This document shows, in pieces, positions 35,786-38,968 of a stretch of DNA of 64,000 nt. Every line of letters begins with the position of its first letter. Position 1 is the stretch's first letter. Made by a program: the position numbers and the translations under genes. The DNA is from Candidatus Omnitrophota bacterium (GTDB lineage Bacteria; Omnitrophota; Gorgyraeia; Tantalellales; Tantalellaceae): positions 52,738 through 116,737 of the forward strand of contig WJMH01000006.1 of the NCBI GenBank assembly GCA_014728045.1, given 5' to 3'. Below the pieces are notes generated by a model. That model saw only the letters and a program-made list of their open reading frames with translations. It searched no databases and was not told the DNA's origin.

Positions 35786-36985
35786 CTATTTCATCGTGTT
35801 CTTAAAATGTTCCGTAAGCCGGGGTACGACCTTGAACAGGTCATCAACGATACCATAGGTAGCTATGTTAAATATTGGCGCTTCGGGGTCCTTGTTTATA
35901 GCAACGATAATATCAGAAGACTTCATGCCGATCAAGTGCTGGATCTGTCCGCTTATCCCACAGGCAATATAAACCTTCGGGCATACGGTCTTGCCCGTCT
36001 GCCCCACCTGGTGAGAGTATGGGATCCAGTCGGCATCGACCGCCGACCTTGAAGCGCCTACCGCCGCGTTAAGTGATAGTGCCAGCTCTCTTATAATATC
36101 GAAATTCTCTTTTGAACCCAGTCCCCTTCCCCCGGATACGATTATGTCGGCTTCGGCGAGATTGACGGTCTCTTCGATCTCTTCGACTACATCGATAACC
36201 TTACTGCGGGAGGCAAAGATATCTTCAGGTAACTGTTCGCTTATTATCTCACCCTTTCTGGAAGAGTCGGGTTCCGCCTCTTTCATTACCTTGTGTCTTA
36301 CGGTGGACATCTGCGGCCTGTGATTGGGAGCTATAATGGTAGCCATTATATTGCCCCCGAAAGCAGGCCTGGTCTGCAAAAGAAGCCTCTCCTTGGGGTC
36401 TATATCAAGTCCCGTACAGTCGGCGGTAAGACCGGCATCAAGTTTTATGGCAACACGGGAGATAAGGCTCCTGCCGATCGTGGTCGCCCCGCAAAGCACT
36501 ATCTCGGGTTTGTATTTACTCACCAGCTCGATAAGAACTTTGGTATAGGGATCATCTTGATATGTGCCCAGTTTGGGTGAATCAACAAGGTACACTTTAT
36601 CGGCGCCTCTTGCAATGACCTCCTTGCAGGCCTCGTCCATCTTGTCACCGAGCACGATACCGCAAAGATTCACGCCGAGTTTATCGGCCAGCTCTCTGCC
36701 CTTACCCAGAAGCTCGAAAGCCACCGATTGGACCTTGCCCTTCTTCTGCTCGCAAAATACCCAGACATCCTTGTATGCGGAAAGATCTATAGCTGTTTTT
36801 GTCTCTTTCTTCTCGATGATTATGGCAGAAAAATTACATACTTCGACGCAAGCTCCGCAGAGAGTACATTTGGAAAGATCTATGACCGCCTTTTTGTCCT
36901 TCATGGTGATAGCACCAAAGGGACAGGCCTTTACGCAAAGCGTGCAACCAGTACATTTCTCGTTTATTACCTTTATATCCGGCAT
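35786..36985 (-). CDS. etfA: Electron transfer flavoprotein alpha subunit with an N-terminal 2x[4Fe-4S] ferredoxin domain
   Basis: The N-terminus has two CxxCxxCxxxCP motifs (CTGCTLCVKACP, CTLCGACVEVCN). The remainder is an EtfA/FixB FAD-binding fold. Confidence 0.9.
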   Translation of the reverse strand: MPDIKVINEKCTGCTLCVKACPFGAITMKDKKAVIDLSKCTLCGACVEVCNFSAIIIEKKETKTAIDLSAYKDVWVFCEQKKGKVQSVAFELLGKGRELADKLGVNLCGIVLGDKMDEACKEVIARGADKVYLVDSPKLGTYQDDPYTKVLIELVSKYKPEIVLCGATTIGRSLISRVAIKLDAGLTADCTGLDIDPKERLLLQTRPAFGGNIMATIIAPNHRPQMSTVRHKVMKEAEPDSSRKGEIISEQLPEDIFASRSKVIDVVEEIEETVNLAEADIIVSGGRGLGSKENFDIIRELALSLNAAVGASRSAVDADWIPYSHQVGQTGKTVCPKVYIACGISGQIQHLIGMKSSDIIVAINKDPEAPIFNIATYGIVDDLFKVVPRLTEHFKNTMK

Positions 36986-37006
36986 ATCTTTCCTTTGTAA
37001 TTCTAT

Positions 37007-37795
37007 CTAGCCCAAAATGGCCTTTTTCATCAATTCCGCCAGCTCTTTGGCTTTTTCGTCCGGTTCCCCTTCCAGGATCCTGCCTCCCTCCCTGGGGGGA
37101 GGCGTGAAAACCTTAACGACTCTGGTGGGAGATCCATCCAGACCTATCTTTTCTGCGTCACAGCCGATATCGTCGGCTGTCCACACGGGTATTTCCGCTT
37201 TTTTTGCCTTCATTTTACCCTTTAATGAGGGCAGTCTCGGCTCGTTTATCTCCTTCACCACGGTGAACAGGGCCGGAAGAGGAGTTTCAATTATATCGTA
37301 TCCTTCTTCTGTCATGCGCTCGACAGTAGCCTTATCTTTATCTATTTTTTCTATTTTCTTAACGTAGGTGACCTGCGGTATCTCAAGATGCGTCGAAACT
37401 CCCGGACCCACCTGTGCCGTATCCCCATCAGATGCCTGCTTTCCGCAGAATATCAGTCTGCAGTCGGAAAGTTTCTCAATGGCCCTGGAAAGAGTATAGC
37501 TTGTAGCCCAGGTATCGCTGCCCGCGAACTTTCTGTCGCTGAGAAGGATTGCCTTATCACAACCCATCGAAATAGCTTCCCTGAGAGCCTCTTCGGCCTG
37601 AGGCGGCCCCATGGAAATGACAACGACCTCTCCTTCGCCCAGCCTTTCTTTGACTCGAAGAGCTTCCTCTATCGCGTACATATCGAAAGGATTTATGACC
37701 GATTCAACTCCCTCCCTCTTAAGGGTATTGGTTTCCGGATCTATCTTGACATCCGTGGTATCGGGCACCTGTTTTATTAGAACCGCTATATTCAT
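37007..37795 (-). CDS. etfB: Electron transfer flavoprotein beta subunit
   Basis: MNIAVLIKQVPDTTDVKIDPETNTLKREGV... is a canonical EtfB N-terminus. Confidence 0.92.
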   Translation of the reverse strand: MNIAVLIKQVPDTTDVKIDPETNTLKREGVESVINPFDMYAIEEALRVKERLGEGEVVVISMGPPQAEEALREAISMGCDKAILLSDRKFAGSDTWATSYTLSRAIEKLSDCRLIFCGKQASDGDTAQVGPGVSTHLEIPQVTYVKKIEKIDKDKATVERMTEEGYDIIETPLPALFTVVKEINEPRLPSLKGKMKAKKAEIPVWTADDIGCDAEKIGLDGSPTRVVKVFTPPPREGGRILEGEPDEKAKELAELMKKAILG

Positions 37796-37813
37796 TTGAA
37801 TCCTGCTGATATG

Positions 37814-38968
37814 TTATTTAGATATACTCTCCTTGATAAGAGCGGAGGCTATGACACTCCTCTGTATCTGGTTAGTCCCCTCGTATATCTGGGTTATCTT
37901 TGCATCTCTCATGAGCTTTTCAACGGGATATTCTTTCATGTATCCGTAGCCGCCGAATACCTGTACCGCATCGGTGGTCACTTTCATGGCCGTGTCCGAA
38001 GCATGCGTCTTGCAGATAGCGGAGATCTTGGCTATATCCTTCGCGCCCGAATCTATCATTCTAGCCGCTGAATAGATAAGACTTCTTGCTGCCTCAATCT
38101 GTATGGCCATGTCAGCCAGCATGAACTGCACTCCCTGGAAAGAGGATATGGAAGTGCCGAACTGTTTTCTTTCGCGCGAATAGTTCACTGCTTCATCGAG
38201 TGCCCTCTGGGCGATACCCAAAGCTTGCGCGGCTACCCCGGGACGGGAATGGTCGAACGTCTTCATGGCCACTATGAAGCCGAGGCCCTCCCTTCCGAGC
38301 AGGTTCTCTTTCGGGACCTTGCAGTCGGTGAATATGACCTCTCTGGTGGCTGAACCCCTTATGCCGAGCTTGTTCTCCTTCTTTCCGAAACTGAGTCCGG
38401 GAGTATCCTTATCTACGATGAAGGCGCTGGCTCCTCTAGCCCCTTTCGACCTGTCGGTCATGGCGATGACCGTATAGATTTCCGCTTCGCCGCCGTTGGT
38501 AATCCACTGCTTCGTTCCGTTTATGATGTAATGGTCTCCGTCCTTGGTAGCCGTTGTCTTGATGCTGCCGGCATCCGAACCCGCTTCGGCCTCGGTAATA
38601 CAGAAAGCCGCGAGCTTTTTACCTGCGGCTATATCCGGCAGATACTTGGCTTTCTGGTCGTCATTTCCGAAGAGGAGTATGGGATAGGTGCCCAGCCCCG
38701 TTGCCGCGAAAGCAAGCGCGATACCGCCACATCCCCAGGAAAGTTCCTCGGCTGCTATGGACATCTCCATGACGCCGCCACCCATTCCGCCGTATTCTTC
38801 GGGGATATATACACCGCAGATATCCGACTCGGCGAAGATTTTGACAATGTCCCAGGGGAACTCGTTCTTCTCGTCATATTCGGCAGCCACGGGCTTTATT
38901 TTTTCCTCAGCGATCTGGTGGCATAGCTCCTTGATCATCTGTTGTTCTTCGGTCAAGAGATAATCCAT
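37814..38968 (-). CDS. Acyl-CoA dehydrogenase (short-chain/butyryl-CoA dehydrogenase-like)
   Basis: 384 aa. ACAD motifs (..CITEAEAGSDAGS.., ..QVFGGYGY..). Immediately upstream of etfBA. Confidence 0.9.
   Translation of the reverse strand: MDYLLTEEQQMIKELCHQIAEEKIKPVAAEYDEKNEFPWDIVKIFAESDICGVYIPEEYGGMGGGVMEMSIAAEELSWGCGGIALAFAATGLGTYPILLFGNDDQKAKYLPDIAAGKKLAAFCITEAEAGSDAGSIKTTATKDGDHYIINGTKQWITNGGEAEIYTVIAMTDRSKGARGASAFIVDKDTPGLSFGKKENKLGIRGSATREVIFTDCKVPKENLLGREGLGFIVAMKTFDHSRPGVAAQALGIAQRALDEAVNYSRERKQFGTSISSFQGVQFMLADMAIQIEAARSLIYSAARMIDSGAKDIAKISAICKTHASDTAMKVTTDAVQVFGGYGYMKEYPVEKLMRDAKITQIYEGTNQIQRSVIASALIKESISK

Follow-up and report, generated by a model that had tools for sequence, protein, structure and literature searches.

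A candidate electron-bifurcating acyl-CoA dehydrogenase/Etf module with a ferredoxin-fused EtfA, adjacent to fatty acid synthesis genes in an Omnitrophota bacterium

Electron-transferring flavoproteins (Etfs) that bifurcate electrons are known from several solved complexes, among them the caffeyl-CoA reductase CarCDE and the lactate dehydrogenase Ldh-EtfAB (LctBCD) of Acetobacterium woodii and the butyryl-CoA dehydrogenase (Bcd) complexes of Clostridioides difficile and Acidaminococcus fermentans. Work on these enzymes supplied the motif criteria that we used here (PMC9232219, PMC12630350). Canonical Etfs have a bulky residue in place of the glycine in the beta-FAD segment DGDTAQVGP of EtfB; RxFxG is the NADH-binding segment, SPT anchors the C-terminal arm of EtfB, and an arginine of EtfA (CarE Arg203, LctC Arg205) forms a hydrogen bond to N5 of the bifurcating FAD. 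We compare these systems with a module encoded at positions 35786 to 38968 of a 64,000-nucleotide stretch of contig WJMH01000006.1 (assembly GCA_014728045.1), from a Candidatus Omnitrophota bacterium; this whole stretch is called the window below. An earlier interpretation made without database searches (the sequence-only reading) had proposed an acyl-CoA dehydrogenase, an EtfB, and a ferredoxin-fused EtfA at this location, and the three co-directional minus-strand open reading frames (ORFs) were recovered with exactly these coordinates and the corresponding Pfam domains.

We postulate, with a probability of about three in four, that the trio is a flavin-based electron-bifurcating enoyl-thioester reductase of the Bcd-EtfAB/CarCDE type. 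In composition it is a CarDE-type Etf paired with a Bcd-like acyl-CoA dehydrogenase family flavoprotein (ACAD), an enzyme kind that is already known and is generically annotated in public records. This proposal draws on the domain make-up, on the residues found in the motifs and at the cofactor sites, on matches to solved bifurcating complexes over the full length, and on strong conservation across two phyla. From these we predict that the subunits form a complex, that this complex binds three FAD and two clusters, and that it bifurcates electrons. The trio consists of the following features.

37814..38968, minus strand: ACAD, 384 amino acids (aa), predicted reductase subunit with delta-FAD (Pfam, PDB matches)
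37007..37795, minus strand: EtfB, 262 aa, predicted to hold the bifurcating beta-FAD and to bind NADH (Pfam, motifs)
35786..36985, minus strand: EtfA, 399 aa (Pfam, PDB matches)
36791..36985, minus strand: N-terminal 2x[4Fe-4S] ferredoxin domain of EtfA, residues 1 to ~65 (two Fer4 stretches, CarE alignment)
35786..36790, minus strand: domains I and II of EtfA, alpha-FAD shuttle domain (ETF and ETF_alpha)

In EtfA, Pfam recognized ETF, ETF_alpha, and two stretches of Fer4 (E 8e-15). Among solved structures, residues 4 to 394 align with CarE (6FAH_A) at 443.6 bits and 53% identity, the ferredoxin domain included, and scores against bifurcating Etfs ranged from 290 to 444 bits, versus at most 177 bits against canonical Etfs. 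The extra N-terminal 2x[4Fe-4S] domain suggested earlier has a complete set of eight cysteines (C11, C14, C17, and C21 plus C40, C43, C46, and C50), which is invariant in 78 of 78 sequences. The cluster motif CxxCxxCxxxCP, said to occur twice, is present in the first half, but the second motif ends in CN (CN or CK in the clade). Of the caffeyl-CoA reductase and lactate dehydrogenase subunits named for comparison, the domain resembles the former: with cysteines for two clusters, it is of the Car type and not of the single-cluster Lct type. Arg206 of EtfA, within QTRPAFGGN, is the equivalent of the FAD-bonding arginine described above and is also kept in 78 of 78 sequences.

EtfB matched the Pfam family ETF (E 9e-50). 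The best match was CarD (6FAH_B; 257 bits, 51% identity), relative to which EtfB has no insertion, followed at 222 to 235 bits by the homologs from Thermotoga maritima EtfABCX (7KOE_A), A. woodii Ldh-Etf (7QH2_B), C. difficile (5OL2_B), and A. fermentans (4KPU_B). Canonical AMP-binding EtfBs scored 61 to 108 bits, versus 222 to 257 for these five solved bifurcating EtfBs. A second-FAD motif in EtfB, which the sequence-only reading had recommended looking for, was found together with the NADH-binding segment and the C-terminal anchor. Gly124, within D123-GDTAQVG-P131, aligns to Gly123 of the A. fermentans protein and is invariant in 69 of 69 orthologues; in the RxFxG segment (R88-K-F-A-G92), F, A, and G are present in all 69 and R in 62; and S222-P-T224 is kept throughout (69/69). 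Judged by sequence, all the bifurcation-relevant features known from mutagenesis or structure are present in EtfA and EtfB. EtfB is not of the AMP type, Gly124 and its segment are intact, and no cysteine is missing, in agreement with the bifurcating Etf that had been proposed.

The ACAD was recognized by the Pfam families Acyl-CoA_dh_N, Acyl-CoA_dh_M, and Acyl-CoA_dh_1 (E 1e-29 to 6e-54), and its catalytic glutamate, Glu363 of the YEGT motif, is kept in all 60 sequences compared. Its top PDB matches were the C. difficile Bcd (5OL2_C; 428 bits, 54%) and then 4L1F_A (409 bits, 53%); CarC was 21st, with 333 bits, under Bcd, medium-chain (MCAD), and short-chain (SCAD) acyl-CoA dehydrogenases. No NCBIfam equivalog cutoff was reached by the ACAD, for which the best model was the acryloyl-CoA reductase of Clostridium propionicum. 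The top models for the trio were AcrC, AcrB, and AcrA, with scores of 467, 250, and 377 bits versus cutoffs of 640, 475, and 600; the AcrA model, moreover, does not include a ferredoxin domain.

We also aligned helix E of the ACAD with human MCAD and SCAD sequences and with those of the two solved Bcds. The helix is of MCAD-like length, without the one-residue insertion common to SCAD and both solved Bcds, and the same was true of 59 of 59 clade members. Ala84 and Ala88 occupy the positions of the MCAD pocket-floor residues Gln95 and Glu99; in the clade, the first is Ala or Ser and the second is invariantly Ala. The helix-E insertion is reportedly tied to chain length, as described for the Megasphaera elsdenii BCAD structure. 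In the light of the structural literature on ACADs, these residues point to a pocket that is perhaps not restricted to C4.

Among NCBI proteins, the top match was a 100%-identical record from a Candidatus Omnitrophica metagenome-assembled genome (MAG), and the next 119 matches, of 72 to 91% identity, were from Omnitrophota and Elusimicrobia. A scan of species-representative genomes gave at least 585 related stretches, and the locus comparisons below refer to the best 80 loci. These came from Omnitrophota and Elusimicrobia, plus bins labelled Planctomycetia. The order ACAD-etfB-etfA was kept in every one of the 80 with enough upstream sequence. Identity to the window ranged across loci from 67 to 89% for the ACAD, 63 to 85% for EtfB, and 63 to 83% for EtfA, which is comparable to FabF and FabG and far above SMC (36 to 60%). 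By this sequence comparison, the trio is among the best-conserved gene sets across Omnitrophota.

In the proposed mechanism, the beta-FAD in EtfB would take up a hydride from NADH. From there, one electron would pass downhill to the delta-FAD in the ACAD by way of the mobile EtfA domain that holds the alpha-FAD. The second, low-potential electron would reach an external ferredoxin via the two [4Fe-4S] clusters in the N-terminal domain of EtfA, which would act as an exit wire. Two rounds would convert one trans-2-enoyl thioester to the acyl thioester and yield two reduced ferredoxins. The predicted stoichiometry is 2 NADH + enoyl-thioester + 2 oxidised ferredoxin -> 2 NAD+ + acyl-thioester + 2 reduced ferredoxin.

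Several points weigh against bifurcation by the trio. The acryloyl-CoA reductase-Etf of C. propionicum holds two FAD and apparently does not bifurcate (PMC5861303), and models from this very system are the best, albeit subthreshold, NCBIfam matches of all three proteins. The motifs are necessary for bifurcation and not sufficient. Moreover, the 64-kb window encodes neither a ferredoxin-consuming partner (Rnf, hydrogenase) nor a source of enoyl-CoA.

The trio lies at the end of a run of six co-directional minus-strand genes, fabG-acpP-fabF-ACAD-etfB-etfA (41456-35727), all confirmed by Pfam and NCBIfam. The adjoining fabG-acpP-fabF genes noted in the sequence-only reading are directly upstream, and each exceeds its NCBIfam equivalog cutoff.

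41429..41456, minus strand: sigma-70-like promoter 5' of fabG, TTGACA-16-TAAAAT with TG (11/12 positions; a consensus match only)
40658..41401, minus strand: fabG, 3-oxoacyl-ACP reductase, 247 aa (TIGR01830, 338.7 bits, cutoff 297.75)
40367..40609, minus strand: acpP, acyl carrier protein, 80 aa from ATG (TIGR00517, 115.8 bits, cutoff 70.45)
39053..40312, minus strand: fabF, beta-ketoacyl-ACP synthase II, 419 aa (TIGR03150, 641 bits, cutoff 493.75)
38969..39052, minus strand: fabF-ACAD spacer, 84 nt, with an AAGGAG ribosome-binding site and no terminator
35727..35761, minus strand: intrinsic terminator with an 11-bp stem, 5-nt loop, and T8

For acpP, the ORF list uses a TTG start at 40645; the TIGR00517 alignment begins at residue 13 of that ORF. 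The gaps between ACAD, etfB, and etfA are 18 and 21 nt. The G+C-rich hairpin after etfA is the sole convincing terminator of the six-gene stretch and matches the clean operon end described earlier: it reads GAGCCCGGTCT-TTCAC-AGACCGGGCTC followed by T8, with its stem at 35761-35735 (7 of 11 pairs G-C), 25 nt past the etfA stop. The gene upstream of fabG has a terminator-like hairpin of its own at 41656-41637. In the window, the trio is probably cotranscribed with fabG-acpP-fabF. A short palindrome, ATACCCGGCCGGTAT, lies directly 3' of the fabF stop (39030-39050, minus strand) and is not kept in the spacers of relatives, which differ widely from one another and in places contain long hairpins.

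Three contexts recur 5' of the ACAD in relatives: fabG-acpP-fabF (22 loci), a glgC-like nucleotidyltransferase plus a GNAT acetyltransferase (~17 loci), and a pilus secretin cluster (8 loci). In a neighbor-joining tree of EtfA, the fab context occurs in three separate clades and the glgC and secretin contexts in one clade each. Because it spans three clades, the fab linkage is probably ancestral; in one glgC-type locus (L082), fabF is still found ~7 kb upstream. On the 3' side of the trio, merR-smc is present in ~30 Omnitrophota loci, a conservation suggesting that much synteny in Omnitrophota is simply inherited. The fabF-ACAD spacers of relatives measure 19 to 158 nt. Some measure only 19 to 49 nt, some leave no room for both a terminator and a promoter, and in others there is a terminator-like hairpin or a consensus promoter (TTGACA-17-TATAAT). 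Given this variation, cotranscription is likely in the window yet is no fixed feature of the phylum. Intergenic distance is itself uninformative about operon coupling, since short gaps between co-directional genes occur in the glgC/GNAT and pilQ contexts as well.

No Rnf, hydrogenase, thiolase, Hbd, or Crt gene was found in the 64-kb window, and crt, hbd, and thl were absent next to the trio both there and among the recurrent neighbors in the 80 loci. For genome-wide context we used the KEGG Orthology (KO) lists in the source data of Seymour et al. 2023 (PMC10066038, file 6), which we consulted for Omnitrophota genomes 58, 231, and, in part, 221; statements about genome 221 refer to the KOs listed. 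Genome 58 is a MAG of 2.3 Mb that is ~93% complete. The lists for genomes 58 and 231 include fabD, fabG, fabZ, fabF, acpP, acc genes, etfB/etfA, Rnf, and pyruvate:ferredoxin oxidoreductase, and fabD, fabG, and fabZ are among those of genome 221. Genome 58 also has Aas (K05939), FadD (K01897), and lipid A genes (PMC10066038). None of the three lists contains fabI, fabV, fabK, or fabL, nor thiolase, hbd, crt, echA, bcd, ptb/buk, or CoA transferase. They also lack any acyl-CoA dehydrogenase KO, though an ACAD always adjoins etfBA in the loci that we examined. KO-based surveys thus probably miss the ACAD of the trio, which may be why the trio goes undiscussed: Etf, Bcd, and fatty acid synthesis are unmentioned in the main text of two Omnitrophota surveys (PMC10066038; a 2026 preprint). 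The anaerobic, fermentative metabolism that had been suggested for this organism is weakly supported by these data. The Rnf genes of other Omnitrophota agree with it; the lack of a butyrate pathway in the KO lists, and of thl/hbd/crt, Rnf, and hydrogenase genes in the window, does not.

Which thioester the enzyme would act on can be approached through this context. As a special case of a bifurcating enoyl-thioester reductase, the trio could tentatively be a previously unrecognised electron-bifurcating enoyl-ACP reductase, an idea that we regard as possible but would not favor. The ACAD would reduce trans-2-enoyl-ACP delivered by FabF, FabG, and FabZ, with part of the redox drop recovered as reduced ferredoxin, and the trio may thereby complete type II fatty acid synthesis in Omnitrophota, possibly also in Elusimicrobia, phyla that seemingly lack FabI, FabK, FabL, and FabV. 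The six genes between one promoter-like site and one terminator are consistent with this idea, as are the fab adjacency in three EtfA clades, the shortest fabF-ACAD spacers, and the distant fabF that persists in the glgC clade. That adjacency, however, is not universal, several fab-linked loci have a hairpin or strong promoter between fabF and the ACAD, and the linkage to the unrelated merR-smc genes is conserved to at least the same degree, so the adjacency could be a product of inherited synteny. The KO lists, with FabD, FabG, and FabZ and no known enoyl-ACP reductase, leave one missing step, the one that ACAD/Etf could perform; but KO absence is weak evidence that an enzyme is absent, FabMG, FabI2, and FabL2 types have no KO, the genomes are MAGs, and the presence of Aas and FadD in genome 58 points to possible scavenging of fatty acids and to a pathway that is possibly just incomplete. 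An Escherichia coli FabI sequence matched only FabG in 86 loci and the window, a comparison that has no bearing on whole genomes. The missing helix-E insertion and the small Ala residues at the pocket floor would fit a range of chain lengths, and some members of the ACAD family (RedW, MbtN, 4IRN) are known to use thioesters of carrier proteins, although no sequence feature points to ACP over CoA. The literature that we searched contains no link of Etf or bifurcation to enoyl-ACP reductase, and a 2022 review of enoyl-ACP reductases includes none of the ACAD type (PMC9260719).

Etf-type bifurcation is reversible, and Ldh-EtfAB is mainly confurcating (PMC9232219). An unlikely alternative is therefore that the trio runs in reverse, with reduced ferredoxin and acyl-CoA (or acyl-ACP) reducing NAD+, in the oxidation or remodelling of scavenged fatty acids, e.g., to trans-2-enoyl and then 3-hydroxyacyl chains for lipid A. 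The FadD and Aas KOs alongside lipid A genes in genome 58 are compatible with such a role, and Helicobacter pylori FabX is a precedent for acyl-ACP dehydrogenation during lipid synthesis. On the other hand, the KO lists have no hydratase, 3-hydroxyacyl-CoA dehydrogenase, or thiolase for beta-oxidation, and sequence cannot tell the direction. We consider it just as improbable that the trio is a classical Bcd/Etf of butyrate fermentation or syntrophic butyrate oxidation. The best solved-structure matches of the ACAD are Bcds, those of C. difficile and A. fermentans, and Elusimicrobia genomes are annotated with Bcd/EtfAB; however, the KO absences leave classical butyrate metabolism without support, crt, hbd, and thl are missing beside the trio, and the ACAD reaches no equivalog cutoff. 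Gene context and a pocket-lining helix that, from its sequence, is not of the short-chain type together argue against butyrate fermentation. A non-bifurcating two-FAD Etf-ACAD like C. propionicum AcrABC, or a caffeyl-CoA (CarCDE) or lactate (LctBCD) system, seems very improbable. The Acr models do lead the NCBIfam matches, and EtfA and EtfB are nearest to CarE and CarD, but the Acr scores are well under their cutoffs, the AcrA model lacks the ferredoxin domain, the ACAD is closer to Bcd than to CarC, LctC has one cluster, and the neighborhood contains neither carA/carB-like genes nor genes for lactyl-CoA dehydratase or Ldh.

Four specific assignments were rejected. The ACAD is not taken to be CarC, given its rank among the PDB matches and its neighbors, which are fabF and merR/smc and include no caffeate-activation genes. 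FixABCX/EtfABCX was set aside since no gene for FixC (quinone reductase) or FixX (ferredoxin-like) is present in the window and 7KOE was only the second-best match. The predicted number of clusters spoke against Lct, and AcrABC was dropped because all three NCBIfam scores are below the equivalog cutoffs.

Taken as annotated, the module is one more Bcd/Car-type bifurcating set that marks its organism as an anaerobe trading in ferredoxin. Our interest in it stems from its strong conservation, its frequent adjacency to fab genes, and the seeming lack of both a crotonyl-CoA-supplying pathway and a known enoyl-ACP reductase. If the trio did act on enoyl-ACP, this antibiotic-target enzyme would gain a sixth class with a different mechanism. 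Energy conservation would then, for the first time, be part of fatty acid synthesis itself, with lipid synthesis returning energy as reduced ferredoxin.

The genes around the six-gene run have features of their own. Between the etfA terminator and smc, a MerR-type helix-turn-helix protein of 68 aa without an effector domain is encoded at 35409-35615 (minus strand), with a promoter-like site, TTGACA-17-TATACT, at 35707-35679. A GGDEF diguanylate cyclase gene at 30522-31730 (plus strand) is convergent with smc, and this pairing is kept in 33 related loci. Proteins of 883 aa (41636-44287, minus strand) and 543 aa (44353-45984, minus strand) encoded 5' of fabG have no Pfam match; the latter recurs in 10 related loci, mostly just 5' of fabG.

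The rest of the window encodes trp and his operons, alaS, recA/recX, a GH1 glycosidase, an aldo-keto reductase, the GGDEF protein, SMC, and two giant ORFs. Omnitrophota have been reported to carry giant genes as a trait. In the first (15371-30331, minus strand; 4986 aa), Pfam recognizes two histidine-kinase-type ATPase domains only, and the second (49526-63916, minus strand; 4796 aa) contains two domains of the Ser/Thr protein kinase type; the greater part of each protein has no family match. Related loci also have ORFs of several thousand residues next to smc, such as one of 6377 aa with kinase, PAS, and GGDEF domains (L005). The compact trpF, trpC, trpD, trpG, trpE and hisF, hisA, hisH, hisB, hisD genes (918-9819, minus strand) indicate that amino acid biosynthesis is kept, despite the host-dependent lifestyle proposed for many Omnitrophota.

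Among known systems, CarCDE of A. woodii (6FAH) shares with the trio the order ACAD-EtfB-EtfA and the eight-cysteine, two-cluster ferredoxin domain of EtfA. Its EtfA and EtfB are 53% and 51% identical over their full lengths, with the FAD-bonding Arg and the EtfB C-terminal anchor kept. The differences are that the ACAD described here is nearer to Bcd than to CarC (428 versus 333 bits), that caffeate-activation genes are absent, that the second cluster motif closes with CN or CK and not with CP, and that the host belongs to Omnitrophota and is not an acetogenic Firmicute. The Bcd-EtfAB complexes of C. difficile and A. fermentans (5OL2, 4KPU, 4L1F) have ACADs 53 to 54% identical to ours that share the catalytic Glu, and EtfBs 47 to 48% identical with the same beta-FAD and NADH motifs. 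Their EtfAs, however, have no ferredoxin domain, their Bcds carry the one-residue helix-E insertion, and the clostridial genes are located beside crt, hbd, and thl, whereas the trio follows fabG-acpP-fabF. Ldh-EtfAB of A. woodii (7QH2) has an N-terminal ferredoxin-type domain on EtfA and the DGDTAQVGP, RxFxG, and SPT motifs; it differs in the single cluster of LctC, in its partner, which is a lactate dehydrogenase and not an ACAD, and in lower scores (290 and 224 bits). FabI, FabL, FabV, FabK, and FabMG possibly perform the same pathway step as the trio, as gene position and their apparent lack in Omnitrophota KO lists suggest. These known enoyl-ACP reductases have no homology to the trio; they belong to the short-chain dehydrogenases/reductases or to the FMN-containing TIM-barrel enzymes, and they consume one NAD(P)H without involving ferredoxin (PMC9260719).

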